From an uncultured Gammaproteobacteria bacterium (GTDB lineage Bacteria > Patescibacteriota > Patescibacteriia > UBA9934 > CAZDDW01), in the NCBI GenBank assembly GCA_964504365.1, contig CAZDDW010000001.1:68293-132292 (forward strand): DNA of 64,000 nt, read 5' to 3'. Shown here one piece after another: positions 30,322 through 57,145 of this stretch. The notes beneath the pieces are model-generated. The model was given only the letters and a program-made list of their open reading frames with translations. It did no database searches and was not told the DNA's origin. Position numbers and translations under genes: made by a program. Positions within the stretch are counted from its first letter, which is position 1. Every line of letters begins with the position of its first letter.

Positions 30322-30925
30322 GTCATTCTCCTCAAAGTTGTAACTATTTGACCTATGCCAGACTTCAGACTGAGAAAAAACCTTATCATTTTAGTCATGT
30401 CAAGTCAATCCGGATGTTAAAAAACCCTGACATAGAAAATAAACTTGAAATAGGAATTATGATTTTGTTAGTGTCTGGCGTACATGACAAAAATTTGGCT
30501 AAGTTATGCACAATTTCGATTTGACAGTGCTTTTTTGCCATGATGAACTGAGAGTAGGAATTCCAAACACATTCATATTTGAACCTTTCAATCTAGGGTT
30601 AGGCAAAAGACTTGCGAGGTCTTTGCCACGGGCGATTCTTAAAACGAGATCTTGTTTACCCGGGCATTCTGTTCTTGGTAGGAAACTTTTATGACCCTCA
30701 GGTCATGCTAAGACAGGGTAATCGACAAACAGGAAAACGTTTACACACTTGGATTGTTTAATAGTATGCGGGTTGGGGGGAGCCAACTGTAGCTATTAGA
30801 TGATCAACAAGTGGGGCTCCCACGCCCCCGAGACCAGCTGTTCAATTACGGCTCCCATGGTCCCGGAGGCGACCGATCTATTCCAGATCGGCCCGTCTCT
30901 TGTTTTTCCAAACAAGGGATTTGTA

Positions 30926-32920
30926 ATGCGTCTGTTTTACCTGTGTGTTTCTTCTGTCTTGGTGGTGCTGCTTGGTGCACTGGCCTGTAATAACATCGTG
31001 CCCATGGGTGGGTCAGATGATCCGCCGACCAGCGATGGTGGGTTGGGCGGTGATGTCCAGCCACTGCCCGAAGGTGTTTTCCAACTACCTTTTGCGTCTG
31101 GTGAAATCCATCTTTGTACTCAAGGGGTTGGTGGCAGTTACTCTCATGATGCGGCTTCAACCTGGTGTGGTTTGGATCTGGATTCTTCAAACAGTGCTTA
31201 CGAGGAGTTGTACGCTCCAGCAAGCGGCATTGCTTACGTGCACTACGACAACTCGGATACTGGGTTTGGTTACCACATCAACATCGACCTTGGTGATGGG
31301 ACTTACTTTGTTCTTGGGCACATGGCTGAGATTTTTCTTGAGGACGCCAGTGAGGTGGTTGTTGGGATGTTGCTTGGTTACGAGGGGTGCACTGGTAGTT
31401 GCACCGGTGATCATGTGCATTTCGACTTGCATGAGGGCGATGCTACCATGATGGCCCAACACGGCACTTCAATACCAACTAGTTACTACGTGACCGATGC
31501 AACCAGTGGCAGTGAGTACATGCATCTGCCCAGTGATCAGTTTGTCTGCGATCTGTACTCTGGCCATTACTACGAGTCACACCTGACCGTAAATACCTGG
31601 CATCCAGATGGCACGCTTCTAATCTACCCGTCCAGCGGGGAAGTCTTCGTGGTTGACCGTGGTCAGTTGCACTGGATCGAGAACGAGGAAGTGTTTTGGA
31701 GCTATGGCTTTGACTTTGCTGATGCGGTGGCTATTTCTGAGCGTGAGTTGTGGTGTTGGGAAGAGTCTGGTCAGAGTATTTCTGAGCCAACTGAATATCG
31801 CTCTGTTGAAGACGAAGATGGAGTGACTTGGTTGGTTTATGAACTTGCTGACAACCCTGGTCGTTATCGACAGGTTGTTCCTGACGAGGTGTATCCGGAG
31901 ATCTTGAATAGCTGGGGTGTGAGTATCACCACGACTTACGCGCACGAAGATGGAGCGGCCATGCTATCTGACTATCCAGTGGCCACTGGTTGGGCCCGTT
32001 TGCGTGACGGTACCCTGGTTCAGGAGATCGGATCAAGCACGATCTATGTCGTGCACGAGGGCTATGCCTTGCCGATCAAGGATTGGGAAACCTATCTGAT
32101 GCTCGGCTTTGGTGATCGCTTTGTGTTCGAGGTACCAAGTGGCACACTTGGTTATGCTGTTTCTGAGATCGGAAGCTGTGATGCCAATGTTGGCTGTATC
32201 GGAATAGAGACGGTCACTGGTTGTGGTGGGGATCTGTCGATTGACTTTGTTGACGACGATCCGGTGTTCGAAGATGATGACGACGTGGTAGATGATGATG
32301 ATTCTGAATCGTCTGCTGACGATGACGATGACTCAGATACGACCGGGGACGACGATGACACAGTCGATCTCGGGGACGACGATGACATCGTTGATGATGA
32401 CGATGACACAACCGAGCTCAGCGATGACGACGACAGCTTTGGTGATGACGACATCGCCGACGATGATACAACAGAGATCACGGATGATGATGACGACACC
32501 GAGCCCTTGGGGGATGACGATGACACGACTGAGGAAGAGGTGGTCGAACCAGATCCGGATTGGCTGTTGTTAGAGATCGAGGCCACGCTCTCTGGAGCGC
32601 CGGCTGATTACGTCGAACTTTCAGGCGAGCTGCTCGATCAGCACGACACTCCTGCTGGGGGTGGCTTCTGGTGGGCAGCGCTCGAGACCGTGTATGACGA
32701 AAACACAGTTTACTGGTCTGCCTATGTCCAGAATGAGTGGAGCTTTCGCTACTCTGTCGAATACGAACGCTACGGCGTGACTTCATGGAGCTGTTTGGCC
32801 CCGTTCCCTCCAGGTACAATCACCATGACGGTTGATGCCCGGCTTGAAGGTCAGACCATCACGACCGAAGCTATTGATAACCACCTGGGTGGTTGTGAAC
32901 TATATGTTCCAGTGCCATGA
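30926..32920 (+). CDS. M23 (LytM-type) peptidase-domain protein with a long poly-Asp linker and C-terminal domain
   Basis: HxxxD (GYHINID) and HxH (GDHVHFDLH) M23 motifs. Signal peptide with Cys. About 100 aa of D-rich repeats (DDDDTVDLGDDDDIVDDDDDTTE...). Start set to MRLFYL at 30926. Confidence 0.65.
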   Translation: MRLFYLCVSSVLVVLLGALACNNIVPMGGSDDPPTSDGGLGGDVQPLPEGVFQLPFASGEIHLCTQGVGGSYSHDAASTWCGLDLDSSNSAYEELYAPASGIAYVHYDNSDTGFGYHINIDLGDGTYFVLGHMAEIFLEDASEVVVGMLLGYEGCTGSCTGDHVHFDLHEGDATMMAQHGTSIPTSYYVTDATSGSEYMHLPSDQFVCDLYSGHYYESHLTVNTWHPDGTLLIYPSSGEVFVVDRGQLHWIENEEVFWSYGFDFADAVAISERELWCWEESGQSISEPTEYRSVEDEDGVTWLVYELADNPGRYRQVVPDEVYPEILNSWGVSITTTYAHEDGAAMLSDYPVATGWARLRDGTLVQEIGSSTIYVVHEGYALPIKDWETYLMLGFGDRFVFEVPSGTLGYAVSEIGSCDANVGCIGIETVTGCGGDLSIDFVDDDPVFEDDDDVVDDDDSESSADDDDDSDTTGDDDDTVDLGDDDDIVDDDDDTTELSDDDDSFGDDDIADDDTTEITDDDDDTEPLGDDDDTTEEEVVEPDPDWLLLEIEATLSGAPADYVELSGELLDQHDTPAGGGFWWAALETVYDENTVYWSAYVQNEWSFRYSVEYERYGVTSWSCLAPFPPGTITMTVDARLEGQTITTEAIDNHLGGCELYVPVP

Positions 32921-33711: not shown

Positions 33712-36552
33712 ATGAAGCGCTTAATTATAAGGGCAACATCCTTCTTGTTAAGGTTAAAAGAAAGCAAAACAAAACCGTGGTTGGTTTTGGTCGGATTTGG
33801 TGTTGTTTTAACAGCCATTTTTTTGTTGCCTGAAGTTGTGTTTGCAACAGGTGAAGTAGGAGGAGAACCATCCGTAGTTGGTTTCATGGAGATGGCTATT
33901 GCCTGGATTGCGGGGTTCTTGGTTACTGTGGCCAAGATTCTTGGTTTAGGAATCGTTACTTTAATCAGTTTGATCATTGTACCGGTAATGCAGTACAACA
34001 ACTTTGCTAACTCAGCTGTGGTTGGTACAGGTTGGGCTGTTGTTCGTGACACAATGAACATTGGTTTTGTTATCGTGTTGCTCGTGATTGCTTTTGGAAC
34101 AATTATCGCTGGTGAATCAGGGTTTGGCGGACGTTTTAATTGGAAACAGAATTTACCGCGATTATTAATTTTTGCCATCTTGATCAACTTCAGCAGAATG
34201 CTTTGTGGACTAATGATTGATTTTGGTCAGGTGGTCATGCTGACTTTTGTAAATGCTATTCGTGATGTGGCTGGTGGAAACTTTATTCAACTGTTTGGTC
34301 TCCAAGATATAATTTCGATTAGCTCTAGTACGGTTGAGGACATGATTAATCAGGGTGAAGGACTAGACTCTTTTTGGTTGTTAGCATCGGCATTTGCTGC
34401 TGCTTTTATGATGGGTGTTGTTTTCCTAACCCTGATCTTCCTTTGCGTAATCTTGGTAATCCGCATCGTGACTCTTTGGATTTTGGTCGTGCTTTCACCA
34501 ATAGCATTTTTCCTAGGTGGTGCTGAAAAAACTTTAGGTAGTCAAGCTGGGGGAATGTACGCCGAGTGGTGGAAAAATTTTACGTCAATGGTTTTGATCG
34601 GTCCAGTTCTGGTTTTCTTCTTATGGTTAGCTTTGGCTGTGGCCGGAAGCGGGAGCATTGCCGCTTCAGAAGGTTTTACAACAACTAACTCTGGTGAAGC
34701 GGCTGGTTCGGCCGGTATTCCATTAGCAATTTTCGAAATGGATAAACTGATCAGCTTTGTTATTGGTATTGGTTTGCTTTGGGCTGGTTTTGATGCTGCT
34801 GGACGTATTGCTGGTGGCATGCCTGGTCAAGTTAAAGGAATTGTTAGTAGTTTGATTAAACCACAAGACGCTTTGCGCATGACTCAACGTTTGGCCATGA
34901 AAGGAGTTGGTGCTGTTGCCCCTGTGGCTGGTTTAGCTGCCGGGGGAGTTGGTTTGGCTGCTAGGGGAACAGGAAAAGTTGTTGCCGCACCGATCAAAGC
35001 AGGTGTGGCCGTAGGTAAGGCTGGTGTTGGTGTTGCAAAATGGGGTGCAAAAACAGGATACGCCGGTGCCAAGTGGGGTGCAAAAACAGGATACGCCGGT
35101 GCCAAGTGGGGTGCTAAGAAAGCAAAACCGTATGCGACCCAGATTCCAATTGGTAAAGGTAAAAAAGTTCAAGATATTGATAAAGTAGTTTCTGGCGAGG
35201 TGGCTAAGGCTGGAGACTGGTTGAAAACAAAAGGTGTTGCTGGTCGTTTTGCTGGTCGATATGTTAAGTCCAAGGCAACAACTCGAGTGCAGTCTCAGTA
35301 CAAAAAAGAACGTGAAGACGCTCAGGCACAGATGGGAAATTTTGCCGGTATGACCAAGGACGAAGTTTTGGAAGAAGCTCGCCGTGTTGCGGTTACACCT
35401 GAGGGACGAGCCCGTCAGCGCGCTGCTCGTTTGTATGCCAGGACAAATGGAAATATTCGCCGAAAGATGAGCACTGATGAGTATGCAGAGATGGTTGAAA
35501 GGGATAAAAAAGATGGGGCTGATAAGATGTGGAAAGGTGACAAGGCTACTAACAAGGAACTCAAAGATGCAGACTTGGCACGTATTGATGCGATTAAGGA
35601 CCCAGACCGAAGGAAGAAGGTAATGAAAGGGAAAACAGATGCAGAGGTCGTCAAAGGTTTGGACTCAACAGCTATTTCTGACGATGATACAGGGGAAGTA
35701 TGGAAGATGCTTGATGATCCAAAAAAGAAAATACGGCACGCAAACAAGGATTACACCGGAGCTGAATATCTTGAAAAATTTGGTACGTCTGCCCAGAAGG
35801 CAGCCGTTAAGAAGGTGAAAGGTATCGATGCCGATGCACAAGCCAAACTAGTTAGTGATCATGGACACTCAGCAACCACGGCTAGTGGAAAAGTTGCAGG
35901 TGCAAACCATGCCACAAAGCGATACTGGGCTGAAAATAATCCAGAGAAAATGTCATCTTCCGGATTGGCGGCTGATGGTGGTCAGTTAGCAGCTGAAATT
36001 GCCAAAGATACCAATAATCCAAAAAAGGCTGCGTTCTTGCGGGAGATTGAGGGTGATAAACAAAAGAAGGCTGCGTTCTTGGCTGGAACAGCTGGTAAGG
36101 GAACCACAAGTGCTGAGACGGCAAATATCCAGGCCAGCAGCTATGTAGTTAGTGGCGGGAACTTAAGTCAGTTGGGAAGCAACAGTGCAGAACGTCGAGG
36201 AGCGATTGATGCTTTGAAAGGAATTGATGCAGCCGCAATTGGTCAGCTAGCTGCGCAATCAGCAAACAAAACAATGCGGGCTCGCAACCCTGCTGATGGT
36301 GCTGCAGCATCAGCAGTATTTACAGATTTATTCAGTCAGATTGATAGTGCATATGTTTCTGGGCTAGATACCACTCACGGTTCTGCTGGTACATCGGATG
36401 AGGACAAGGCGGCTCTTGAAGGCACGGTCAGACAGTTGCTAACCACAATCACCCAGGCACAGAAAAAACGCATGGCTCCTGCTTCAGCCCCTGCGATGAC
36501 CACGCTTCAGAGTCAGTTACAAACAACCTTGAGCGCAATGAAGGCTCGATAA
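33712..36552 (+). CDS. VirB6/TrbL-like polytopic T4SS channel protein with a long K/A/G-rich C-terminal extension
   Basis: N-terminal ~450 aa with a signal peptide and multiple TM segments in TrbL-like arrangement. C-terminal ~500 aa hydrophilic, with a tandem KWGAKTGYAGA repeat. Confidence 0.55.
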   Translation: MKRLIIRATSFLLRLKESKTKPWLVLVGFGVVLTAIFLLPEVVFATGEVGGEPSVVGFMEMAIAWIAGFLVTVAKILGLGIVTLISLIIVPVMQYNNFANSAVVGTGWAVVRDTMNIGFVIVLLVIAFGTIIAGESGFGGRFNWKQNLPRLLIFAILINFSRMLCGLMIDFGQVVMLTFVNAIRDVAGGNFIQLFGLQDIISISSSTVEDMINQGEGLDSFWLLASAFAAAFMMGVVFLTLIFLCVILVIRIVTLWILVVLSPIAFFLGGAEKTLGSQAGGMYAEWWKNFTSMVLIGPVLVFFLWLALAVAGSGSIAASEGFTTTNSGEAAGSAGIPLAIFEMDKLISFVIGIGLLWAGFDAAGRIAGGMPGQVKGIVSSLIKPQDALRMTQRLAMKGVGAVAPVAGLAAGGVGLAARGTGKVVAAPIKAGVAVGKAGVGVAKWGAKTGYAGAKWGAKTGYAGAKWGAKKAKPYATQIPIGKGKKVQDIDKVVSGEVAKAGDWLKTKGVAGRFAGRYVKSKATTRVQSQYKKEREDAQAQMGNFAGMTKDEVLEEARRVAVTPEGRARQRAARLYARTNGNIRRKMSTDEYAEMVERDKKDGADKMWKGDKATNKELKDADLARIDAIKDPDRRKKVMKGKTDAEVVKGLDSTAISDDDTGEVWKMLDDPKKKIRHANKDYTGAEYLEKFGTSAQKAAVKKVKGIDADAQAKLVSDHGHSATTASGKVAGANHATKRYWAENNPEKMSSSGLAADGGQLAAEIAKDTNNPKKAAFLREIEGDKQKKAAFLAGTAGKGTTSAETANIQASSYVVSGGNLSQLGSNSAERRGAIDALKGIDAAAIGQLAAQSANKTMRARNPADGAAASAVFTDLFSQIDSAYVSGLDTTHGSAGTSDEDKAALEGTVRQLLTTITQAQKKRMAPASAPAMTTLQSQLQTTLSAMKAR

Positions 36553-36562
36553 ACATATTTCT

Positions 36563-38119
36563 ATGGCCCTTAAAAGGGAGGAATTACCAGCCAAAGTACA
36601 AAGCTTTTTGGAAAGCCCAGATTTAACCCAAAAAGCTTTTGATATTATTGAGAAGTATCAGGTGCCAGATGAGCAAAGTGGAGAAGTGGCATATATTATT
36701 GAGTGTGAGAATGAACAGGGTCAAATTCTTGATAAGAATTTACTGGCAAAGATCCCGCAAAGACTGCAAAAACTTACTGGATTAGATCCAGCTAAAGCAC
36801 AACAAATGGCAGTGGATTTGGTTGGAGCTTGGTTGTTGCCAATTGAAGATCAGGTTGGTGGAGTATCAGAGCTATTGAGTCAGTGGGGAGGTAAGCCTGG
36901 AGAGCATTCTGTAAAACAGGTTTCTAGAACAAATGTTACTGCTGATGAATTAGTTCGTGGTGTGGTGGAGGAGATGGGAATAAAATTTGAAGAGCCGGCA
37001 ATGGACAAACGACTGATCTTTATCTTGACTACCATGGCGCGCGGTGTTCGAACTGATTTGGATGTAATCAAGGCCTTGTCACGAAATAAAAAAGTAGGTG
37101 GTTTAGAAATGGAAGAAGGGCAGGCTAAGGAGATAGTTCAAAAGATAAAGTCGCATATTAGTGGATCTAAATTAGAAGAAGATAAGCCGGTGAGTGCTGA
37201 GGTAAAGCTTCCACCAAAGCGTGAAGTGCCCCCACCTCCAAAGTTTGATGCAACTGTAATTTCAAAACAGGACGAACAAGAGGCAGCCGCATTGGTAAAG
37301 AAGGTTACAAAAGTAGCCCAATCAATTTCAATCGAAGATGGGGTTAAGAGAGTAATCGAAGAGGTTGGTGGGCGTTTTAAAGATGAAAAAAGTAAAAAGC
37401 GTTTTGAAAAAATTGTTGATAGTCGATTGCGTGAAGTGCGTGATGCTTTTACAACGCGCACAGCACTTGAAGATCCAGTAGCCAAAGGTGGTTTGAATTT
37501 GAAAGGGAAAGAGCTGGTTGAGATCTTGCAGTCAATCGAAAAAGCCTTTGACGATTCACATCGAGTCATTGCTGAAAAGGCTGTTAAAGAAAAACAGAAG
37601 TTTGAGAAAAAGCAGGTGGAGAAAAAGCAGCAAGCAGAAGCTGATAAAGCAGAGGCCCTTGATCGACGCTATGCCAAGATGACTGGTCGACCAGCCAAGC
37701 AGCCACCAGCTGCAGTGCAGACCGAGATGTCACCGGCCAGTGTTCCGCCAAAGGGAACTAAACCAGCAGTTCAGGACATTGCTCCAGCTAGAAAGTTGGC
37801 TGGTCCAGTGCAAGAACTGGAGAATATGGATTTGGTTGGTTTCCGTCGCTTGGCTCAAGATCCAAACGAAGCCATCTTGAAAATAAAGGATAAGATTGAG
37901 CTGCTAGAATCAGAATCATATGCCAAGCGGATCGCTGGTGTTAAGGGTTGGCAAAGTAGTCCAGTAAATAAAATGTACGTTGATTTAACTCGTCAGGCCT
38001 TGGTCACGGGTAAACCTATTGAACAAGTGGCAGCTGCTAAACAAAAAGGCGGCAGTGACTCATTAAGCAAAGAAGAGATTCAAGCAATCATGAAACTGAA
38101 CAATCAGCTCAGATTCTGA
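36563..38119 (+). CDS. hypothetical hydrophilic K/E-rich protein within the T4SS-like cluster
   Basis: 518 aa, no TM segment. Assigned by operon context only. Confidence 0.4.
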   Translation: MALKREELPAKVQSFLESPDLTQKAFDIIEKYQVPDEQSGEVAYIIECENEQGQILDKNLLAKIPQRLQKLTGLDPAKAQQMAVDLVGAWLLPIEDQVGGVSELLSQWGGKPGEHSVKQVSRTNVTADELVRGVVEEMGIKFEEPAMDKRLIFILTTMARGVRTDLDVIKALSRNKKVGGLEMEEGQAKEIVQKIKSHISGSKLEEDKPVSAEVKLPPKREVPPPPKFDATVISKQDEQEAAALVKKVTKVAQSISIEDGVKRVIEEVGGRFKDEKSKKRFEKIVDSRLREVRDAFTTRTALEDPVAKGGLNLKGKELVEILQSIEKAFDDSHRVIAEKAVKEKQKFEKKQVEKKQQAEADKAEALDRRYAKMTGRPAKQPPAAVQTEMSPASVPPKGTKPAVQDIAPARKLAGPVQELENMDLVGFRRLAQDPNEAILKIKDKIELLESESYAKRIAGVKGWQSSPVNKMYVDLTRQALVTGKPIEQVAAAKQKGGSDSLSKEEIQAIMKLNNQLRF

Positions 38120-38131
38120 TAGTATATAAGT

Positions 38132-38563
38132 ATGGAACGATTTGTAGTACCACAATTTATTGATGTAGAAGACAAGATTATTGGTCCTGTAACAACACGC
38201 CAGTTTGTTTTAATGTTGTTTCCAGCCCTGACCGGAGGACTGTTTTTCAAGATTTTTGATTTCTCCTTGTTCCTTCTGGTTACAATCCCAATGGTAATCG
38301 CTTTTGGCTTACTTGCTTTTTTCAAAGTCAACGGCATGCCTTTACATTTTTTCTTATTAAATTTGTTGCAGAGCTTGCGTAAACCGACTTTAAGAGTGTG
38401 GGACAAAAATTTACAGGACGATGAGATTCGGCTGAGGCTTAAAGTTGAAAAAGTTGCACCTCCACCCTCACCCCCACGCAAAGCCCCAATTTCACGCAGC
38501 CGCTTACACGAGCTGACCTTAGTAGTAAATACTGGTGGCGTTTATCAACCAGAGGAAGAATAG
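38132..38563 (+). CDS. PrgI/VirB3-like small membrane protein
   Basis: 143 aa with two TM segments after TTRQFVLMLFPALTGGLFF. It sits directly upstream of the VirB4 homolog, as in Gram-positive T4SS. Confidence 0.5.
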   Translation: MERFVVPQFIDVEDKIIGPVTTRQFVLMLFPALTGGLFFKIFDFSLFLLVTIPMVIAFGLLAFFKVNGMPLHFFLLNLLQSLRKPTLRVWDKNLQDDEIRLRLKVEKVAPPPSPPRKAPISRSRLHELTLVVNTGGVYQPEEE

Positions 38564-38564
38564 T

Positions 38565-39245
38565 ATGCAATCAAAAAAATTAGCTAAAGCCAAACCAGGA
38601 CCAGCCACGCAGCGCTATCTTGATATTGCTGAGATCCGTGAGGATGTGGTCGTTCTTAAGGATGGGACCATGCGAGCTGTGATTATGGTTTCAAGTCTCA
38701 ACTTTGCCCTAAAGTCGGAAGATGAACAAACGGCCCTTATTCAATCTTACATGTCTTTTCTCAACGGTCTTGAGTTTCCGCTTCAGATAGTTATTCAGTC
38801 ACGTCGGATGAATATTGATTCTTATATAACTTCTTTAAAAACACAGGGTAAGAAAACAGAGAATGATGCTTTGCGAGCTCAGATTGGTGATTATTTAAGC
38901 TTTATTCAGGAGCTGGTTACTTTGGGCGAGATTATGCAAAAACGGTTCTATGTAGTTGTTCCTTATGACCCTAAGAGAAATAAGGCCAAGAGTTTTTGGC
39001 AACGTTTGGCCTCCGCTGTTTCACCAATTGCCAGATTGAAGTTAAAAGGTAAAGAGTTTGACGAGCGAAAAGATGAGTTGGTTAGTCGAGCTCAGCTGAT
39101 ACTTGGTCAGCTGAACAGCATGGGTCTACAAGCGGTTCCTTTGGATACTCAAGGTTTGATTGAATTGTACTATACTGTATACAACCCTGATATTTTTGAC
39201 ACAGAAAAGTTAGAGGATATAAGTAAGATAAGAGTTGACGAGTAA
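38565..39245 (+). CDS. VirB4/TraE-like ATPase, N-terminal domain, encoded as a separate ORF
   Basis: YLDIAEIREDVVVLKDGTMRAVIMVSSLNFALKSEDEQTALIQSYMSFLNGLEFPLQIVIQSRRMNIDSY matches the conserved VirB4 N-terminal domain. The ORF ends at a TAA 1 nt before the next ATG. Confidence 0.6.
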   Translation: MQSKKLAKAKPGPATQRYLDIAEIREDVVVLKDGTMRAVIMVSSLNFALKSEDEQTALIQSYMSFLNGLEFPLQIVIQSRRMNIDSYITSLKTQGKKTENDALRAQIGDYLSFIQELVTLGEIMQKRFYVVVPYDPKRNKAKSFWQRLASAVSPIARLKLKGKEFDERKDELVSRAQLILGQLNSMGLQAVPLDTQGLIELYYTVYNPDIFDTEKLEDISKIRVDE

Positions 39246-39246
39246 T

Positions 39247-41193
39247 ATGGCTATTGAAGTTGGAAAATTATCAAAAGCAACTCCGGCACCACCGGAAAAG
39301 CCAAAAGCTGTTAAACCGGAAAAGGCCAAGGTGGAGGCAGAGCGTGTTGCTCTTTCAGAAGAGCGTGAATATGTTAAAGGTGTGGTTTCTGTTCGCGACC
39401 TGATTGCCCCGGCTTCTTTTCAGGTTTTTCCAAAACATTTGCAGCTTGGTAGTAAGTTGGCCCGAACCTTCTTTATTATCGCTTATCCGCGTTATATTGG
39501 TGTTGGTTGGAGCTCGCCGGTCATTAATTTGAACTATACAATGGATGTGTCCATGTTCTTTTATCCTGTAAAAAGTGCTGTTATTTTGAAACAGATGCGT
39601 AAGAAAGTTGGAGTGCTTGAATCACAGATTGTGGCTGATTCAGAAAAGGGTAAGCCACGTGATCCAATTCGTGAAACAGCGTTACGTGATATTGAAAAGT
39701 TGCGTGATGATTTAACTCAAGGCGTAGAACATTTTTTCCAGTTTGCTTTTTACGTTACTATTTATGCTGATAACGAAGACGAGTTAGATAAAAGGAGTGA
39801 AGAGATTGAATCGATTTTTGGTTCGAAATTGATTTATTCACGCAAAGGTTTGTATCAGGCCGAGCAAGGCTTTAATTCGACCATGCCACTTGGTAATGAC
39901 GAGCTGATGATCACCTTTAACATGAATACTTCTCCGATTGCTTCCAGTTTTCCATTTATTTCTTCTGACCTGACTTCTGATGACGGCATCTTGTACGGCA
40001 TTAATCGACATAACAACAGCTTGATTTTGTTTGATCGTTTCAGTTTGCAAAATGCAAACTATGTTGTTTTTGCGACATCAGGCGCTGGAAAAAGCTACAC
40101 GATTAAATTAGAAATTATCAGGAGCATGATGCTAGGAACAGATATAATAGTTATTGATCCGGAAATGGAATACAAACGTTTATCAGATGCGGTCGGTGGA
40201 ACTTATATCAATATTTCACTCGCCTCAGAATCAAAAGTCAATCCGTTTGATTTGCCACGGCCAACTGGAGCAGCGGTGAAGGTTGATGATATTATTCGTT
40301 CCGCTGTGATTGTTCTTAAGGGTCTGCTACGGATCATGATCGGCCGTCCTGTCGGTGAAAAAGGTTCACTTGGTTTTACTCCAGAAGAAGATTCGTTACT
40401 TGATCGAGCATTGATTGAAACATATGCAAAGAAAGATATCACTCCAGCCACAGTTGATCTGACAGATATTGATCCACCAACCATGCAAGATTTACAAGAT
40501 ATTCTAGAGGGCATGGAAGGGACAGAAAATTTGGTTGCTCGTTTAAAGAAATATACTGAAGGAACATTTTCCGGTTTACTAAATTCACCAACGACTGTTG
40601 AGATGAATAATCAGTTAGTAGTTTTCTCTGTTCGTGATCTTGAAGATGAGCTGCGTCCTATTGCTCTGTACACGATCGTTAATTACATTTGGAACGTGGT
40701 TCGTTCAGAAAGCAAGAAACGAGTTCTGGCTATTGATGAGGCCTGGTGGTTAATGCAGCACGAAGATTCGGCTAAATTTATCTTTGCTTTAGTCAAGCGT
40801 GCTCGAAAGTACTATCTTGGAGTGACAACGATTACTCAGGACGTGAATGACTTCTTGCGCTCACCTTATGGTCAGGCGATCGTTACCAACTCGGCTATTC
40901 AGTTGTTAATGAAACAGTCACCAACCGCAGCTGATTTAGTGCAAAAGACTTTTGCTTTAACAGATTCTGAAAAATATTTATTAATGGAATCTGGGATTGG
41001 TGAAGGAATTTTCTTTGCTGGCAACAAGCACGCTGCAATTAAAGTGGTCGCTTCCTATACTGAGGACCAAATAATTACCACTGATCCAAAGCAACTCTTA
41101 GAGATCGAGCGACAGAAGAAAGAGTTTGCTGAGCAAATGAAAGCAGAAGCAGGAGAAGATGAAACAACAGAAGAAGTAAAAGAACAGAAATAA
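39247..41193 (+). CDS. VirB4/TraE-like T4SS ATPase (C-terminal ATPase domain)
   Basis: Walker A (FATSGAGKSYTIK), Walker B (VLAIDEAWWLM), and a CagE/TrbE-type C-terminal region. Confidence 0.8.
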   Translation: MAIEVGKLSKATPAPPEKPKAVKPEKAKVEAERVALSEEREYVKGVVSVRDLIAPASFQVFPKHLQLGSKLARTFFIIAYPRYIGVGWSSPVINLNYTMDVSMFFYPVKSAVILKQMRKKVGVLESQIVADSEKGKPRDPIRETALRDIEKLRDDLTQGVEHFFQFAFYVTIYADNEDELDKRSEEIESIFGSKLIYSRKGLYQAEQGFNSTMPLGNDELMITFNMNTSPIASSFPFISSDLTSDDGILYGINRHNNSLILFDRFSLQNANYVVFATSGAGKSYTIKLEIIRSMMLGTDIIVIDPEMEYKRLSDAVGGTYINISLASESKVNPFDLPRPTGAAVKVDDIIRSAVIVLKGLLRIMIGRPVGEKGSLGFTPEEDSLLDRALIETYAKKDITPATVDLTDIDPPTMQDLQDILEGMEGTENLVARLKKYTEGTFSGLLNSPTTVEMNNQLVVFSVRDLEDELRPIALYTIVNYIWNVVRSESKKRVLAIDEAWWLMQHEDSAKFIFALVKRARKYYLGVTTITQDVNDFLRSPYGQAIVTNSAIQLLMKQSPTAADLVQKTFALTDSEKYLLMESGIGEGIFFAGNKHAAIKVVASYTEDQIITTDPKQLLEIERQKKEFAEQMKAEAGEDETTEEVKEQK

Positions 41194-41194
41194 T

Positions 41195-41761
41195 ATGAGC
41201 AGACGAAATAAAATTATAATTGTTGTAGTTGCAGTACTGTTAATTCTGTTGGCTTTGTGGTTGCTTTGGTCAAGGTTTTTTAGAGTTGCACCTGAGACAA
41301 TAATAGTAATTCCTGAAGATGAGTTGGTGGCCGATATCGAGGAAACAGGTCCGGTTGAAATGATTGACGCTGAAGAATCATCTCGAGCACCGGTTGAAGT
41401 GTCTGTTGATTCCTTGGCAAGGACATTTGCTGAGCGTTATGCCAGCTATTCAAACGAGAGCGACTTTGCTAATTTGCACGACCTAGAACCACTGATGACT
41501 GAGTCAATGTGGGCTGAAACAGAAGTTTTAATTGATTCATTGGAGGTAGAAGATATATATCATGGTGTTACCTCGCGTGCGATTACGATCACTGTTCCTG
41601 CAATGGATGACAATGATTTAATGGTATCAGTTGAGGTGGTGATGCAGCGTGAAGATGCGCTAGGCAGTCCGCAGAATATTGAGATTAAGTATGAGACCTT
41701 GGTTTTGGATATGGTTAAGGAGTCTGGTACATGGAAGGTTGATGGAGCAACATGGCAATAG
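41195..41761 (+). CDS. membrane-anchored protein (N-terminal TM + periplasmic domain; VirB8-like position)
   Basis: 188 aa with N-terminal TM (IIIVVVAVLLILLALWLLW). Assigned by context only. Confidence 0.35.
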   Translation: MSRRNKIIIVVVAVLLILLALWLLWSRFFRVAPETIIVIPEDELVADIEETGPVEMIDAEESSRAPVEVSVDSLARTFAERYASYSNESDFANLHDLEPLMTESMWAETEVLIDSLEVEDIYHGVTSRAITITVPAMDDNDLMVSVEVVMQREDALGSPQNIEIKYETLVLDMVKESGTWKVDGATWQ

Positions 41762-42462
41762 ATTTTAGTAAAATTAGAAATACTTGGAGGACCGCATTAA
41801 ACGCGGTCTTTCCTGTTTTTTGTACTCGTTGTGGGCTAGAAGGAGAGTTGTTGTGTGTTGATTGCCGTGGGGCGACCCGGATCGAGACCTTGGCACACAA
41901 ATGTCCGTTTTGTGATCGGGAAACTGCTTCTGGGGCAACTTGTCGGCGTTGTGCACGATCGAGCCAGCTTGATGGTTGCATTGCCTTGTCCCACTATGCT
42001 GAACCTGCGGTTAAAGGCGTGGTCAAGTCTTGGAAGTATGATAGTAATAAAAAAAGCGAGGCCATCATCCAGACCTGGCTTCGTCGATCGAATATCGCTA
42101 ATATGTTACAGGATTTGCCTTGGACTTTAGTGCCGATCAGTTTGCATCCAGCACGAGATCGTGAACGTGGATTTGATCAAGCAGTGATTTTGTCGCATCT
42201 TATCGCAGGTGAACTATCGCTACCGGTTGCCTCTGCTCTACGTCGCAGAAAACGAACCACGCCACAAGCTAGCCTTGGAGACCGCCGCCGCAGAGTCGGA
42301 GAAATGCGTGGATCGTTTGTACTCGCTGCAGACCCACCATCGCACGTGCTTCTGGTCGATGATGTGCTTACCTCTGGAACTACTCTCGACGCTGCAGCAC
42401 ACACTTTAAAACAATCTGGCTCCGAATTAGTCTGGGGCCTGGTCCTAGCACGGGGGAAATAA
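41752..42462 (+). CDS. comFC: competence protein ComF (ComFC-type phosphoribosyltransferase with double zinc ribbon)
   Basis: N-terminal CTRCG...CVDC...CPFC...CRRC zinc ribbons. C-terminal PRTase motif LLVDDVLTSGTTL. Confidence 0.8.
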   Translation: MAIDFSKIRNTWRTALNAVFPVFCTRCGLEGELLCVDCRGATRIETLAHKCPFCDRETASGATCRRCARSSQLDGCIALSHYAEPAVKGVVKSWKYDSNKKSEAIIQTWLRRSNIANMLQDLPWTLVPISLHPARDRERGFDQAVILSHLIAGELSLPVASALRRRKRTTPQASLGDRRRRVGEMRGSFVLAADPPSHVLLVDDVLTSGTTLDAAAHTLKQSGSELVWGLVLARGK

Positions 42463-46659: not shown

Positions 46660-48033
46660 ATGGAAACATTGATTATTATCATCGCTATTCTTTTTTGTGT
46701 TTTTTTAGCTATTCGTCCGGTGCGTTGGTTGAATATGGCCACCGGACCTTTGCTGATCCTGGCTTTGCTTTTTATTTTTCAGGTTATTGATCTAGGAACG
46801 ATTTGGCAGGGAATTATTGATAATGGTCAAATGCAACCATGGAAGATTTTAGTTATTTTCTTTTCCGTTGCCTATGTCAGTATTAGTACTGACATGACCG
46901 GAATTTTTGATTATATTGCCTATCGTGTTATTCGGGCAGCCAACGGTAGTGGGTTTAGATTGTTTGTCTTCTTTTACATTTTTGCTTGTCTTTTGACTAC
47001 GGTTACATCGAATGACATAGTTATTCTAACTTTGACACCAATTATTTTTTATCTTGGACGACACGCTAAGTTGAACGTTGTTCCGTTGTTGTTTGCTGAA
47101 TTTTTTGGAGCAAATGCAGCCAGTATGCTGCTTTTTATAAGTAGTCCAACCAATATTATTATTGGGACATCTTTAGGTATTGGTTTCTCTGAGTATTTAA
47201 GCAACATGTGGTTACCAACTCTTGTGGCCATTGTGATCAACTTAGTGTTGCTGGTTGTGGTTTTTCGAAAAAAGATTACTCAGAAATATACTGTTAAAAA
47301 AAGTTCGAATTATCATGTGCGAAATTGGTTTGATGCTTTGATGAGTTCCGGGATGTTGCTTTTGATGTTGGTGTTATTGATTCTGTCCGACAAGTTTGAT
47401 CTAAGTATTTGGATTATTACTCTCACTTTTGCCGCGATCTTCATTGTCCAGGATCTTGTTTTCGGGCTGTACTATCATATTAAAGAATCACGACTTTCTC
47501 CTGCTCAGCTAAAGAAAGGCAAAGATGTTTATGGGATTCCTGAAAATAAGAATGAATTTTGGATGGCCTGGCAACGTGTCCCTTGGAAGATCTTGCCTTT
47601 TATTGCTGTAATTTTTGTTTTGGTTCAGGGGTTAAATGATTATGGGTTTATCGACATCTTGGCCACGGTTTTATCTAATGTGTCGACCACGGTTTTCTCT
47701 GGAATTTTTATTATGGGGTCTGCAGCTTTTGTTTTGGCCAACATGATCATTGATCAGCCCATGACGATTTTAATGAGCAACGTTTTGACCAGTGACAACT
47801 TCTTGGTTAGTGAATCAGTAAGAAATGCTAGTGCCTACGCGATTTTGATCGCCAGCAACCTAGCTACGAATTTGACTATTATTGGAGCCCTGGCTGGATT
47901 AATGTGGAAACAAATATTAAGAACTAAAGGAATTAAGATTAGTTATCGCGACTTTTTGATCAAAGGCCTACAGATTACACCAATCGTTTTTGTGGTAACA
48001 TGTTTGACACTATGGTTCAGCTTTCTGATTTAG
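46660..48033 (+). CDS. ArsB/NhaD-superfamily anion permease (CitMHS-like)
   Basis: Polytopic, with TSNDIVILTLTPI and SSPTNIIIG motifs. Start set to METLIII. Confidence 0.5.
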   Translation: METLIIIIAILFCVFLAIRPVRWLNMATGPLLILALLFIFQVIDLGTIWQGIIDNGQMQPWKILVIFFSVAYVSISTDMTGIFDYIAYRVIRAANGSGFRLFVFFYIFACLLTTVTSNDIVILTLTPIIFYLGRHAKLNVVPLLFAEFFGANAASMLLFISSPTNIIIGTSLGIGFSEYLSNMWLPTLVAIVINLVLLVVVFRKKITQKYTVKKSSNYHVRNWFDALMSSGMLLLMLVLLILSDKFDLSIWIITLTFAAIFIVQDLVFGLYYHIKESRLSPAQLKKGKDVYGIPENKNEFWMAWQRVPWKILPFIAVIFVLVQGLNDYGFIDILATVLSNVSTTVFSGIFIMGSAAFVLANMIIDQPMTILMSNVLTSDNFLVSESVRNASAYAILIASNLATNLTIIGALAGLMWKQILRTKGIKISYRDFLIKGLQITPIVFVVTCLTLWFSFLI

Positions 48034-50087
48034 TAACAACTTTACCTGGTATCGGTGAAGTGGTGGCCAGGGATTTGAAGAAGATGGGGGTCGAGACTAT
48101 TAACGACCTGCTTTTTTATTTCCCTTTTCGATATGATGATTTATCTAAGGTTTGTTTGATCTCGGAATTGGCTCCTGGAGAGGTTGCCACGATACAAGGT
48201 CGGGTGAGCACGATAAAGTCTCGTCGATCTCCTCGCAAGCGAATGATGCTGACTGAAGGCGTGGTTGAGGACGAGACTGGGCGGATTAAAGTGATCTGGT
48301 TTAACCAGCCTTATTTGGCTAAGTCTTTGAAACCAGGGACAGTGGTGTCATTATCTGGTCAGGTTGATGATAAGTATGGTTTGGCTATGGCTAATCCGAT
48401 ATATGAGATTGTTAGCGGTAGCGAGACTAAACACACTGGGCGGATTGTACCGATCTATTCTTTGACCGGATCGTTAACACAGAAGCGGATCAGGGCTGCG
48501 ATCCATTATGCACTTGAGGCTGTGAACCAGATCGAAGATTGGTTACCAGAGCAGGTAGTTGAAGAAGAACAATTTTCAGATATTGCCACAGCGATCATGC
48601 AGATCCATTATCCAGATGATTGGCCGCGTTGTGAACAGGCGATTGATCGGAATAAGTTTGATGAGTTGTTTTTGCACCAGTTGATGTTTGCTCGTTCACG
48701 GGCTGATGTGGTCAAACGTCCGGCGTATTCGATCGAGCGTGACAAAAAAGCTGAAACTGCATTTGCTAGTTCGTTCCCATTTGAACTGACTAAGGCACAG
48801 AAGCGATCGGTTGACGAGATCTTGTCTGGTATGTCCGAGGAGCATCCAATGAACCGTTTGTTAGAGGGAGATGTTGGGTCTGGAAAAAGTGCTGTTGCAG
48901 CCGCGGCGATCAAGGCTTGTCTGCGGTTAGGACATCAGGCTGCGTACCTGGCCCCGACTGAGATATTGGCTCGACAGCAATGGCAAGAGTTAGGTGTTTT
49001 GTTTCCTGATCAAGAGGTCGTCCTTCTGACTCGAAACGTAGCGGAACCCTTTAGGGTTCCAGCGTCGTCAGATGGAAGGCTAAAGCCTTCCGCTACGTTA
49101 CAAAAGAGCGAAGTAAAAAAAGCACTTCGTTCTGGCGAGATTCAGTTCGTGGTCGCAACCCACGCTTTACTTCAAGAAGGGTATGAATTCGACAAGCTTG
49201 GTTTGTTGGTGATTGATGAACAGCATCGTTTTGGTGTTCGGCAGCGGCAAGAGCTGATGAGTCGTGCTGGCAAGATTGCCCCACACTTGTTATCCATGTC
49301 AGCTACACCGATCCCGCGATCCTTGGCGTTAAGCATTTACGGCGATCTAGATATTTCGATCTTGGATGAATTGCCAGTTGGTCGTAAGCCGATTAAGACT
49401 CATTTGGTCAGCGATAAGAATATGAGTAGTGCAATTAATTTGATCGAACGTGAGATCGAGTCTAAACACCAGGTTTACGCGGTCTGTCCACTAATTGATC
49501 CGTCAGATAAACTTGGTGCTAAGTCAGTGACCGAGTTCTCGGACGAGCTGCGATCTGGTCCGTTAGGGAAATATCGAATCGAGATCCTGCACGGAAAGTT
49601 AAAGTCAGCAGATAAGTCTGAAGTGATTAAACGATTCGTTGCCGGTCAGATTGATATTCTTGTTTCGACTACTGTTGTTGAGGTTGGGGTTAATGTTCCG
49701 AACGCAACGGTTATGTTTATTGAAGGGGCAGAGCGGTTTGGTTTGGCTCAGTTGCACCAGTTGCGCGGTCGAGTTGGACGAGCTGATATTGAGTCGTATT
49801 GTGTTTTGCACCCGAATTCTGTGTCAGATATATCGCGAGAGCGACTGGTAGCCATGACTGAATCGAATGATGGTTTTGCTTTGGCTGAGAAAGATTTGGA
49901 ACTTCGCGGGTCAGGCAACTTATTCGGCACAGCTCAGTCTGGTTTTATTGACTTCAAACTAGCCACTCTAGCCGATGTTGATCTAATGAAAAAAGCCCGT
50001 GATTGGGCCGGGAAAATTAATGTTGAAGATTATCCGGATCTAGAAGATAAGGTAGAACAGCAGTACGAGCAAGTACATTTTGAGTAA
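48000..50087 (+). CDS. recG: ATP-dependent DNA helicase RecG
   Basis: Wedge domain, then helicase motifs (GDVGSGKS, DEQHRFG, QLRGRVGR). Confidence 0.92.
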   Translation: MFDTMVQLSDLVTTLPGIGEVVARDLKKMGVETINDLLFYFPFRYDDLSKVCLISELAPGEVATIQGRVSTIKSRRSPRKRMMLTEGVVEDETGRIKVIWFNQPYLAKSLKPGTVVSLSGQVDDKYGLAMANPIYEIVSGSETKHTGRIVPIYSLTGSLTQKRIRAAIHYALEAVNQIEDWLPEQVVEEEQFSDIATAIMQIHYPDDWPRCEQAIDRNKFDELFLHQLMFARSRADVVKRPAYSIERDKKAETAFASSFPFELTKAQKRSVDEILSGMSEEHPMNRLLEGDVGSGKSAVAAAAIKACLRLGHQAAYLAPTEILARQQWQELGVLFPDQEVVLLTRNVAEPFRVPASSDGRLKPSATLQKSEVKKALRSGEIQFVVATHALLQEGYEFDKLGLLVIDEQHRFGVRQRQELMSRAGKIAPHLLSMSATPIPRSLALSIYGDLDISILDELPVGRKPIKTHLVSDKNMSSAINLIEREIESKHQVYAVCPLIDPSDKLGAKSVTEFSDELRSGPLGKYRIEILHGKLKSADKSEVIKRFVAGQIDILVSTTVVEVGVNVPNATVMFIEGAERFGLAQLHQLRGRVGRADIESYCVLHPNSVSDISRERLVAMTESNDGFALAEKDLELRGSGNLFGTAQSGFIDFKLATLADVDLMKKARDWAGKINVEDYPDLEDKVEQQYEQVHFE

Positions 50088-52472: not shown

Positions 52473-53795
52473 TTATAATTCGGAAACCGATTTGATTCCT
52501 CGTAGAGTCAGATCGGTTTTTGTTTTGCTGGCTCTTGCTGGAACCCAGGCTGTGCTCATACCCAAGCGGGCGATCTCGTTTAGCCGACGCTCGATGAACG
52601 ATATTGATCGAACTTCACCACCAAGTCCAACTTCACCAAATACAACCACTCCTTCTTCGATCGGCTCGTTTTTTACAGCTGAGACTATAGCTGCAGCAAC
52701 AGCAAGATCAGCCGCTGGTTCATTCAGAGACAGGCCGCCGATCACGTTTACAAAAATGTCAGATTCGCCTAGTTTCAAACCAGCACGTTTAGACAAGATC
52801 GCAGCTAGCATTTGTAAGCGATTAGCGTCAAATCCACTAGCCCGTCGGACAGGTGTGCCATAAAAGGATTTATCAACCAGTGCTTGAACCTCGACTAAGA
52901 ATACACGCGAGCCTTCGACGGTTGCTGTGATCGCAGATCCAGGTGATTGGGTTCGTTCAGCCAAGAAGCGTGATGATGGATTTTCAATTGCGACCAAACC
53001 GTTCTCTTTCATCTCAAACACACCAACCTCGTCAGCAGACCCAAAACGATTTTTTGAAGCACGAAGTAGCCGTGTTGCATGTACCGGATCTCCTTCGAGA
53101 TTCAAAACAACGTCGACCAAGTGTTCTAATGTTTTTGGTCCAGCAACAGATCCATCCTTAGTTACTTGTCCTACCAAGATGATTGGCAGATCAGTTCGTT
53201 TAGCAAGTTCAACCAGCATGGCTGTTGCAGCTCGGACTAAGTTGGGAGAACCAGCAGCGCTTTCTATTTGCATTGAACTTAATGTTTGAACGGAATCCAC
53301 AATCAGTAGTGCTGGCTTAGCTTTCTCAACTGTGGCTATGATTGTGCCAATGTCGGTCGCTCCTAGATAGCTAACATTTTTTCCAGCGATGTCGAGTCGT
53401 TTAAATCGACCAGACAACTGACCAGCAGACTCTTCGCCAGATGCATAAATAATTTTTTCAGAACCGATTGATCCAGCGACCTGGGCAACAAGAGTTGATT
53501 TTCCAATCCCAGGTTCGCCAGCAATCAAAACAACTGATCCAGGGACAATCCCTCCACCAAGCACTCGGTCGACTTCAGAAATACCGGTGCCAGAACGCAC
53601 GGCCTCAAAAGATCCAGAACCGAGATTTTCAAGTTCGGTTGGTGCAGAGCGAGCAACCATTTTTTTGCCAGCAGAAACAGGAGGCCCTTCGACCTCCTCC
53701 TTGACCGTGCCCCAGGCACCACACTCAGTACAACGCCCGGTCCACTTAGTATATTGTGAATCACATTTAGAACAATGGAACATAGTAATTAACAA
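52473..53795 (-). CDS. radA: DNA repair protein RadA/Sms
   Basis: N-terminal C4 zinc finger (CSKCDSQ...CTECG), Walker A GEPGIGKST, KNRFG motif, Lon-like C-terminus. Confidence 0.92.
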   Translation of the reverse strand: MLITMFHCSKCDSQYTKWTGRCTECGAWGTVKEEVEGPPVSAGKKMVARSAPTELENLGSGSFEAVRSGTGISEVDRVLGGGIVPGSVVLIAGEPGIGKSTLVAQVAGSIGSEKIIYASGEESAGQLSGRFKRLDIAGKNVSYLGATDIGTIIATVEKAKPALLIVDSVQTLSSMQIESAAGSPNLVRAATAMLVELAKRTDLPIILVGQVTKDGSVAGPKTLEHLVDVVLNLEGDPVHATRLLRASKNRFGSADEVGVFEMKENGLVAIENPSSRFLAERTQSPGSAITATVEGSRVFLVEVQALVDKSFYGTPVRRASGFDANRLQMLAAILSKRAGLKLGESDIFVNVIGGLSLNEPAADLAVAAAIVSAVKNEPIEEGVVVFGEVGLGGEVRSISFIERRLNEIARLGMSTAWVPARASKTKTDLTLRGIKSVSEL

Positions 53796-55207: not shown

Positions 55208-55209
55208 AA

Positions 55210-56488: not shown

Positions 56489-57145
56489 TTATTCTTGTTC
56501 TAGAAGCTTTTCACGTACAGCCTTTTCCAAGGTGTCGTAAGAGACGGCTCCAACGTAACGGTCTTCGCCAATAAATAAAGTAGGTAAGGCAGTTAAGGAC
56601 AGCGCATTTGCTTCTTCAAGGTTTTTTTCAATCTGCGGTAGAGTTTCTTGTTCTTCCCAACATTCAACAAAAGATTCAATATCTAATTCTATATTTGTTG
56701 CAATTGCTAAAATTGTTTGCTCGTTTAAGAGGGCCTGATTAGCTAAAACTGAATCATGAAATTCCCAAAAACGCCCTTGTTCATGAGCACATAGTCCAGC
56801 AACAGCCGAAGTAACAGCCATAATATCTGCCCCTTCGTTTGGGGTTAGTTTGACAACATGTTGAACATCATTAGGTAGCTCATTCTGTAGACGAACAATG
56901 TTGGTGGCCATGTCTGCACAAGCTGTGCAAGTTAAATCACTTAGCTCAACCAAAACAATGCTTGGTTCATCAGTTCCGCGGACCGGATCAATAAAAGTCA
57001 CAGTTGGTTCAGTAATTGTTACAACTGTTTCCGTCGTTTCTGTTTGTGTTCGAGTTGGTGGCTTGCTAGAGATATAAAAAACGATTAGCACCACAGCTGC
57101 CATGAATAGCACGCCAAGCCAAGAAAGAGTTCGGTGATGTTGCAT
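56489..57145 (-). CDS. DsbA-like thiol:disulfide oxidoreductase (thioredoxin fold, CxxC)
   Basis: N-terminal TM anchor, CTAC active-site motif, and a second Cys pair. Confidence 0.6.
   Translation of the reverse strand: MQHHRTLSWLGVLFMAAVVLIVFYISSKPPTRTQTETTETVVTITEPTVTFIDPVRGTDEPSIVLVELSDLTCTACADMATNIVRLQNELPNDVQHVVKLTPNEGADIMAVTSAVAGLCAHEQGRFWEFHDSVLANQALLNEQTILAIATNIELDIESFVECWEEQETLPQIEKNLEEANALSLTALPTLFIGEDRYVGAVSYDTLEKAVREKLLEQE

Follow-up and report, generated by a model that had tools for sequence, protein, structure and literature searches.

The 64-kb stretch of DNA analyzed here (hereafter the window, to whose positions all coordinates refer) carries at 33712-42462 a compact gene cluster resembling type IV secretion systems (T4SSs), which we consider quite probably to be a chromosomal, vertically inherited T4SS of ABY1-class Patescibacteria, derived from the MPF-FATA conjugation machinery of monoderm bacteria. 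This view is founded on the identities of the genes, the tiling of one VirB4 by two adjacent products, the VirB8 fold of a small membrane-anchored protein, the conservation of gene order, and the chromosomal surroundings; assembly, direction of transport, and cargo we infer by analogy. The original prediction of a compact T4SS-like cluster of a Candidate Phyla Radiation (CPR) bacterium is supported. The ABY1 T4SS and its linkage to comF are already known, having been published in 2025 (Quinonero-Coronel et al., 2025, Microb Genom, PMC12102498). To these, the present analysis adds that the ‘split’ VirB4 is a true domain tiling kept as two genes, a confident VirB8-like model for a 188-aa protein, an unannotated family of ~2,600 representatives (at 50% identity) as a fixed member of the operon, and fusions of a pilin-like hairpin to M15 peptidases in the same syntenic block.

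Gene order and lineage of the operon

The co-oriented open reading frames (ORFs) that had been predicted in 33712-42462 are all found there, although they number seven and not eight, with listed lengths of 946, 518, 143, 236, 652, 188, and 236 aa. They are separated by intergenic distances of +10, +12, ~+1, +1, +1, and -10 nt. For two of them better starts are available, namely ATG 38565 (shortening the TrsD-like product from 236 to 226 aa) and ATG 39247 (shortening VirB4 from 652 to 648 aa), both of which match the public gene calls of identical proteins and the ortholog consensus.

A scan of one genome per species located relatives of this VirB4 at at least 567 genomic places, and the best 80 loci were examined. 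The VirB4s of these loci are 70-83% identical, and the titled records are mostly from Candidatus Uhrbacteria, along with Falkowbacteria and Magasanikbacteria, all of which we take, following the GTDB taxonomy, to be orders of the class ABY1. The synteny comparison with CPR genomes that the original prediction had suggested reveals one order kept in the 80 loci: M23 peptidase, VirB6-like protein, 518-aa protein, PrgI, TrsD, VirB4, VirB8-like protein, and ComFC, with median gaps of ≤19 nt between the operon genes. Farther downstream, where the flanks reach, this is followed by RecG and then, on the minus strand, RadA, two pilin-like M15 peptidases, and DsbA. The gene of the M23 peptidase immediately precedes that of the VirB6-like protein in 38 related loci. 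RecG comes after ComFC in 28 loci and DsbA is syntenic in 7, both counts being limited to the fetched flanks; RadA is found in 21, and the M15 peptidase of the type encoded at 55210..56484 is syntenic in 16. The loci of Falkowbacteria and Magasanikbacteria retain the same order, flanks included.

As judged from these sequence comparisons, the clustering is far beyond chance, and the lineage can be assigned to the ABY1 class, closest to Candidatus Uhrbacteria. Hence, the earlier description of a Saccharibacteria-type CPR system survives as regards the CPR and fails as regards the Saccharibacteria, the VirB4 relatives being of the ABY1/Uhrbacteria kind. As a side observation, many metagenome-assembled genome records titled ‘uncultured Gammaproteobacteria bacterium’ carry the Uhrbacteria-type operon with a VirB4 70-83% identical; these titles look like mislabels, and one such record, OZ246408.1, is a 1.0-Mb complete chromosome.

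Components of the predicted machine

The motor of the system is encoded at 39247..41193 (+) by a short-form VirB4 ATPase of the CD1110/MPF-FATA type (648 aa), which matches NCBIfam conju_CD1110 (1.6e-101; 340.8 bits against a cut-off of 325) and the VirB4 C-terminal domain in PDB 4AG5 (1.3e-53). Its best VirB4 families are this Gram-positive conjugative one and that of the Mycoplasma integrative and conjugative elements (ICEs), and 40 orthologs keep both Walker motifs (A, GAGKS; B, DE) without variation. Immediately before it, at 38565..39245 (+), lies a TrsD/TraD-family protein (226 aa), a homologue of the VirB4 N-terminal domain by its NCBIfam matches: VirB4_plasma (the Mycoplasma-ICE VirB4) over positions 91-247 of 894 (5e-11) and NF041427 TrsD (5e-8; 32.9 bits, below the cut-off of 200). 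The window protein itself has no Pfam match, and a profile search of PDB sequences with it returned nothing significant; TraC_F_IV, the Pfam model of the F-type VirB4 N-terminal domain, is found in 29 of its 61 orthologs, and its public gene call bears a precomputed PF26593 TraC-like assignment. The name TrsD for this partner follows Guglielmini-type profiles and Quinonero-Coronel et al. (PMC12102498). Because the TrsD-like ORF spans positions 2-140 and the 648-aa ORF positions 180-730 of the same 752-position CD1110 model, the alignments indicate that the two tile one full-length VirB4. We also considered whether TrsD had arisen by tandem duplication of the N-terminus of VirB4 itself and rejected this, since hhalign detects no similarity between the two (probability 0.4%).

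That two VirB4-related ORFs, the split VirB4 of the original prediction, lie in different frames only 1 nt apart might also be taken as the mark of a decaying remnant, in which a frameshift has broken virB4 and the cluster no longer functions. The two ORFs are real, but the broken gene is not: they are separate in 80/80 loci and occur in all three relative frames (0/1/2 in 16/34/30 loci), and therefore a recent frameshift cannot account for them. Further, both products are highly conserved (mean column identities of 62% for the TrsD-like protein and 72% for VirB4), the ATPase motifs are intact, and the same arrangement exists on Firmicute conjugative plasmids. Decay is thus already refuted by conservation, and we accord it practically no probability. 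Searching plasmids by tblastn with the TrsD-like protein recovered 142 records, mainly Firmicute replicons with a few archaeal (haloarchaeal) ones. On a conjugative plasmid of Bacillus cereus, the ORFs that follow the TrsD-like gene bear no annotation beyond hypothetical and are interrupted by a group II intron; we take these ORFs to be VirB4. Since the arrangement is the same on Firmicute replicons, the pairing of TrsD with a short VirB4 is an inheritance from monoderm conjugation systems of the pGO1/pIP501 kind. By lineage and architecture, the window VirB4 would belong to the MPF-FATA-derived clade of Patescibacteria VirB4s.

The gene preceding the TrsD-VirB4 pair, at 38132..38563 (+), encodes the predicted PrgI/VirB3-like protein (143 aa), which scores above the cut-off of Pfam PrgI (3.8e-9; 37.4 bits against 27), has one hydrophobic stretch at aa 24-70 with room for about two transmembrane (TM) helices, and is present in 79/80 loci. 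The first of the seven genes, at 33712..36552 (+), encodes a 946-aa polytopic membrane protein that is likely VirB6-like, an extended channel candidate, as suggested by its position and topology: seven to eight hydrophobic segments fall within aa 25-417, and the conserved core covers aa ~50-400. The C-terminal half (~500 aa) comprises 17% A, 12% K, and 10% G, with a net charge of +28, and the gene has a 33-nt tandem repeat in this tail region. Every ortholog (737-1540 aa in total) has an A/K/G-type tail, the sequence of which is not conserved; VirB6 proteins ‘extended’ by large hydrophilic domains form an established class (2025 review). Hidden Markov model (HMM) matches among the orthologs are weak: Pfam TrbL is found in 4/57 (best 9.7e-6), and of the NCBIfam families of Gram-positive VirB6 analogues, CD3337/EF1877 is found in 3/57 and pLS20_p028 in 1/57. 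The core had no match among PDB sequences by profile search and none on plasmids by tblastn, and its hhalign comparison with a 779-aa TrbL-like protein of Pontibacillus was not significant. Thus, of the TrbL/VirB6-like protein with a 500-aa K/A/G-rich extension that had been proposed, the topology and the tail stand, and the VirB6 family match is weak, coming from few orthologs.

Right after virB4, at 41195..41761 (+), is the gene for a bitopic protein of 188 aa, which had been noted earlier as a TM-anchored product in the position of VirB8 and for which structure prediction indeed yields an NTF2/VirB8-like fold. A profile search collected 175 homologs, and the AlphaFold2 model, built from 121 sequences, has a mean predicted local distance difference test score (pLDDT) of 90.4, with a TM helix at 3-28, a linker, and an NTF2-like domain of three helices and a four-stranded curved sheet. 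Against the PDB, Foldseek retrieves the VirB8 domain of PrgL of pCF10 (7AED; 1.2e-4, 20% identity), followed by CagV, TraM (R64), DotI, an IcmL-like protein, TrwG (R388 machine, 8RTD), and TcpC; the E-values for PrgL, CagV, TraM, DotI, and TrwG range from 1e-4 to 2e-3, and generic NTF2 proteins (ARC6/PARC6, Tim44) score much like these VirB8 matches. At the sequence level, Pfam VirB8 is found in 3/61 orthologs (best 6e-5), PF04335 is precomputed on three homologs, and the profile search of PDB sequences gave nothing significant. Because the modeled fold, the bitopic topology, and the place after virB4 combine, we identify the protein as the predicted VirB8-like subunit.

The 518-aa protein (36563..38119, +) is soluble, lacking any TM segment, and is found in 77/80 loci, always in the same slot between the VirB6-like gene and PrgI. 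At 50% identity, its family comprises 2,580 representatives (1,524 with E ≤ 1e-30) and is strongly conserved in a ~110-aa C-terminal domain (FRRL..DP..A..KI.DK..LLE...W..SP). The AlphaFold2 model, computed from a shallow alignment (a word-indexed homolog search gave five sequences), has a mean pLDDT of 72.8 and predicts a modular all-alpha protein with helical domains at 1-110, 127-200, 257-374 (with one helix 60 residues long), and 412-518, between which run Pro-rich linkers predicted to be disordered. There was no match among PDB sequences, Foldseek against the PDB offered none better than E = 1.7, and Pfam found no recurrent family on 56 orthologs. The original prediction had listed this product as an unknown, for which structure prediction supplies an all-alpha model and no fold match. 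We would guess that it is a cytoplasmic scaffold or adaptor.

The final gene of the operon, at 41752..42462 (+), encodes ComFC (236 aa), as predicted. It matches TIGR00201 (6.4e-20; 71.9 bits, below the curated cut-off of 233.55), GntX (1e-17), and Pfam DZR_2 (double zinc ribbon, aa 15-68) and Pribosyltran, in keeping with an N-terminal Cys4 zinc ribbon and a C-terminal phosphoribosyltransferase-like domain; a profile search of PDB sequences found no significant relative. The linkage of comFC to the cluster is close: its start overlaps the stop of the VirB8-like gene by 10 nt in the window, and the two genes adjoin in 74/80 loci with a median gap of -10 nt (≤20 nt in 53/67). The next gene lies on the opposite strand, and the operon of the window ends with comFC. 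With comFC co-transcribed as the last gene and recG and radA after it, the system is seen to be co-regulated with the handling of single-stranded DNA, which is no proof that its cargo is DNA. The strongest terminator-like element of the region, a hairpin at 41786-41812 (+) with 10 bp, six GC pairs, and a T-run, falls within the first 60 nt of comFC, and hairpin-plus-T-run patterns recur in 19/67 loci. A conserved terminator at this site was rejected, with RNAalifold giving no consensus structure and the T-run encoding the conserved ComF motif F-P-x-F-C.

Chromosomal setting and probable function

Upstream of the operon, the window contains NusA, YidC, GroEL, RF2, Sua5, KsgA, a 3198-aa giant ORF, and the M23 peptidase; downstream are three tRNAs, transporters, RecG, RadA, two M15 peptidases, and DsbA, as well as a Clp-family AAA+ ATPase (Clp_N/AAA_2/ClpB_D2-small domains). 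GC content is even over the window. A conventional conjugative system, either an ICE or an integrated plasmid, with its relaxase and VirD4 encoded beyond the window would accord with the descent of the components from Gram-positive conjugation machinery and with the tRNA genes 1.4 kb downstream. However, domain scans of the window ORFs found no relaxase, VirD4/TraG-coupling, FtsK, or integrase domain, bearing out the earlier statement that the window lacks a relaxase and VirD4. The original prediction had named a relaxase and VirD4 just outside the window as the counter-case; on examining ~8-10 kb beyond each end, with NusA and LemA as handles, we found no relaxase, coupling protein, or integrase, the outer flanks being of a housekeeping character (ArgRS, PyrF, and a methyltransferase on one side; PGM, RseP, and PheRS on the other). 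No convincing att-like direct repeats bracket the cluster or link the downstream tRNA genes with the upstream flank, the locus and its chromosomal neighbors are syntenic across the ABY1 orders at 70-83% VirB4 identity, and among 2,474 Patescibacteria VirB4 homologues a relaxase is close to virB4 in just 15 cases (PMC12102498). We therefore deem this alternative very improbable: given the housekeeping surroundings and the lack of a nearby relaxase, coupling protein, or integrase, the system is vertically inherited and chromosomal and not a mobile or conjugative element. VirD4-like genes are common in Patescibacteria and usually distant from virB4 (PMC12102498), and so their absence from the window says little about the genome.

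As a vertically inherited T4SS, the machine may be pictured as follows. The cytoplasmic VirB4 ATPase would work with the separately encoded N-terminal-domain protein TrsD, the two docking on a membrane platform of PrgI/VirB3, the polytopic VirB6-like protein with its variable hydrophilic tail, and the bitopic VirB8-like NTF2 protein. The secreted M23 peptidase could open the cell wall, as a candidate for the VirB1 role, the pilin-like proteins encoded ~12 kb away may form the extracellular part, and the lineage-wide soluble helical protein of 518 aa might be an added subunit or a substrate adaptor. Such a machine would move macromolecules across the single membrane and wall at a site of contact with a host cell. 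By analogy with the Saccharibacterial homologue, which is essential for that role, macromolecule transport at host contact appears to be the most likely function. 

The principal competitor to this view is a competence-like import of DNA, in which single strands from the host cell or the environment enter through the VirB4-powered channel, are received by ComFC, and are processed by RadA and RecG for recombination or nucleotide salvage, making the system an analogue of archaeal Ced/Ted or of Helicobacter pylori ComB. The original prediction had leaned this way, holding that the ComFC linkage argues for DNA import rather than conjugation. In its favor are the place of comFC, which in most ABY1 loci closes the operon with a translational overlap, recG and radA after it, the lack of a relaxase or type IV coupling protein in the window and the ~8-10 kb beyond its ends, and the precedent of the relaxase-less importing T4SSs ComB and Ced/Ted. 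Moreover, CPR bacteria reportedly cannot make nucleotides, and the Patescibacteria survey itself raises DNA import as a hypothesis (PMC12102498). Nevertheless, in Southlakia epibionticum the T4SS is essential and comEC, comF, and dprA are not, with transformation being ComEC-dependent (PMC10633639). ComEC and type IV pili, with which ComFC usually works, are also encoded in ABY1 genomes. Only one class shows the linkage to comF, although the T4SS clade spans the whole phylum (PMC12102498). Further, recG and radA are housekeeping genes, gene order is strongly conserved in these small genomes, and the VirB4 resembles CedB in the P-loop region alone (45 bits; cut-off 700). Accordingly, of the original argument, the rejection of conjugation stands on the absence of a relaxase and integrase from the window and the ~8-10 kb beyond its ends, and the step to import is weakened by the ComEC and comF data; we regard DNA import as rather unlikely. 

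A bolder form of the same idea, to which we give a similarly small share of belief, is that the T4SS and its co-translated ComFC constitute a ComEC-independent conduit that pulls host single-stranded DNA into an ABY1 epibiont. If so, it would feed RadA/RecG-dependent recombination or nucleotide salvage as a bacterial counterpart of archaeal Ced, and the 518-aa protein might replace the coupling protein. 

Several points weigh against a vertically inherited T4SS that transports macromolecules at host contact. The window copy of the 946-aa protein has no significant HMM match, making its VirB6 assignment a weak one; transport direction and cargo in the ABY1 members would follow by analogy; and, if DNA is no substrate, nothing accounts for comFC being joined so tightly and so consistently to the operon. 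Further, a coupling protein, which might take part, is likely to be encoded elsewhere in the genome, and a pilus is conjectural since the pilin-like proteins are peptidase fusions scoring below the Pfam cut-off. 

Among the neighbors, the secreted Peptidase_M23 protein (706 aa; 30800..32920, +; Pfam 7e-10) has an Asp-rich tract. RecG is encoded at 48000..50087 (+; Pfam RecG_wedge, DEAD, and Helicase_C) and RadA/Sms at 52473..53795 (-; Pfam KaiC-type ATPase, Lon_C, and zinc ribbon). The two secreted Cys-rich paralogs beyond these, each with a signal peptide, a Cys-rich region, and a two-TM hairpin, are 49% identical over their N-terminal ~210 aa: one (53789..55279, -) joins a VirB2/T4SS-pilin-like hairpin to a VanY (M15) peptidase (Pfam VanY), and the other (55210..56484, -) a T4SS-pilin-like hairpin (Pfam T4SS_pilin, 1.6e-4, below the cut-off) to Peptidase_M15_4 (8.7e-15). 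The latter hairpin aligns with a T4SS_pilin protein of Pontibacillus (31% identity; E = 0.001). A pilin hairpin fused to a peptidoglycan peptidase is unusual; here the two paralogs carry different M15 domains, VanY and M15_4. A DsbA-like thioredoxin (56489..57145, -; Pfam Thioredoxin_4 and DSBA) follows, which may oxidize the Cys-rich fusions. The original prediction had suggested that these fusions and DsbA may be accessory parts; in related loci, their block is syntenic with RadA.

We also observed further features on the upstream side. The 3198-aa giant ORF (17294-26890, +), a few kb upstream of the T4SS operon, has a weak match to a carbohydrate-binding module, and three related loci have fragments of a homologue ahead of their VirB6-like gene. 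Two lipoprotein-like paralogs (27057-27743, - and 29605-30321, -), like the M23 peptidase, have long Asp-rich tracts (DDDDxVT repeats); near them is a 67-nt repeat with 87% identity between 27931-27997 and 29178-29244, and neither paralog is conserved in the related loci. A secreted 231-aa protein (28266-28961, -) with an HEYTH (HExxH-type) motif and no family match may be a metalloprotease. A 176-aa PaaX-like putative regulator (33041-33571, +; PaaX_M, 3e-11) lies between the M23 peptidase and the VirB6-like gene; as a conserved regulator of the operon it was rejected, being found in 2/80 loci.

Relationship to known systems

The likeness to the DNA-uptake systems ComB of H. pylori and Ced/Ted of archaea is that these too are relaxase-less T4SS derivatives, theirs serving in DNA uptake, and in H. 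pylori ComFC acts downstream of uptake. However, ComB is a diderm VirB2-10 system that passes DNA to ComEC, and the Ced proteins are unrelated to those of the window beyond the VirB4/HerA P-loop. Against the Ced families, the window gave 45 bits for CedB (cut-off 700) and 18.6 for CedD (cut-off 600), which places it outside the ComB/Ced group.

The Gram-positive conjugation systems of the pGO1/pSK41/pIP501 type (TrsC-TrsD-TrsE; MPF-FATA) share with the window the order VirB3-like, TrsD, short VirB4, the NTF2/VirB8-like bitopic proteins, and a dedicated peptidoglycan hydrolase. In contrast, they are borne on plasmids or ICEs and possess a relaxase, oriT, and coupling protein for DNA export, and the window TrsD falls far below the NCBIfam TrsD cut-off (32.9 against 200 bits). 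A cluster on the 898-kb replicon of Pontibacillus sp. ALD_SL1 (NZ_CP062975, 351.8-361.4 kb), typed as non-mobilizable, is a look-alike of the CPR system and encodes, in this order, two T4SS_pilin proteins, a TrbL-like protein, a TraL/PrgI-like protein, a TrsD-like protein (31% identical to that of the window, 8e-26), a CD1110 VirB4, and an M23+NlpC/P60 hydrolase. Unlike the window, this Firmicute cluster has no ComFC, 518-aa homologue, or VirB8-like gene in the corresponding positions, and its hydrolase follows VirB4, whereas the M23 peptidase of the window precedes the VirB6-like gene. It sits between chemotaxis and flagellar genes and includes pilins of the VirB2 kind, a component that Gram-positive T4SSs are said to lack.

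Functional data in the clade come from a single member, the T4SS of Southlakia epibionticum (SEML1_0006-0019): its cluster is essential for epibiotic growth, which can dispense with ComEC, ComF, and DprA (Wang et al., 2023, Cell, PMC10633639). Deletion of comEC abolishes transformation in this organism (PMC10633639), and a 2025 review restates all of this. In the type genus of ABY1, too, there are genes for ComEC and for an uptake apparatus of the type IV pilus kind. The earlier remark that such systems are functionally uncharacterized no longer applies in full, given this essential Saccharibacterial homologue (PMC10633639) and the published ABY1 linkage (PMC12102498). Like the window, the S. 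epibionticum cluster has Gram-positive-like subunits and no recognizable relaxase or coupling protein; unlike it, it belongs to the class Saccharimonadia, has an array of stand-alone VirB2-like pilins within the cluster, and has an unlinked, dispensable comF; the structural VirB8 homologue of the window has no counterpart that was found in S. epibionticum. Few machines are known to be indispensable to the epibiotic life of this very large, mostly uncultured radiation, and the Patescibacteria T4SS is one of them. The comFC gene welded onto the ABY1 operon is the best genomic hint at a DNA substrate, one that is already in the literature and is not resolvable from sequence; what stays of interest is the nature of the cargo, together with the unannotated 518-aa family.

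The closest counterpart is the ABY1 arrangement described in a survey of 3,035 Patescibacteria genomes (Quinonero-Coronel et al., 2025; PMC12102498). In that survey, most Patescibacteria VirB4s group into one clade within MPF-FATA, TrsD outnumbers all other partners and as a rule lies beside VirB4, PrgI/VirB3 and VirB6 are frequent, and relaxases are rare (109 in 103 genomes). Nearly all matches to VirB8 HMMs come from ABY1, the class to which the linkage of comF, recG, and radA is specific (PMC12102498). Neither the 518-aa family nor the fusions of pilin and M15 peptidase are mentioned by name in the main text of the survey. The window and the published ABY1 arrangement share an MPF-FATA VirB4 with TrsD beside it, PrgI/VirB3, a VirB6-like protein, and an ABY1-type VirB8, in a chromosomal locus with no nearby relaxase and with comF, recG, radA, and KsgA nearby, and the two agree with no substantive difference.

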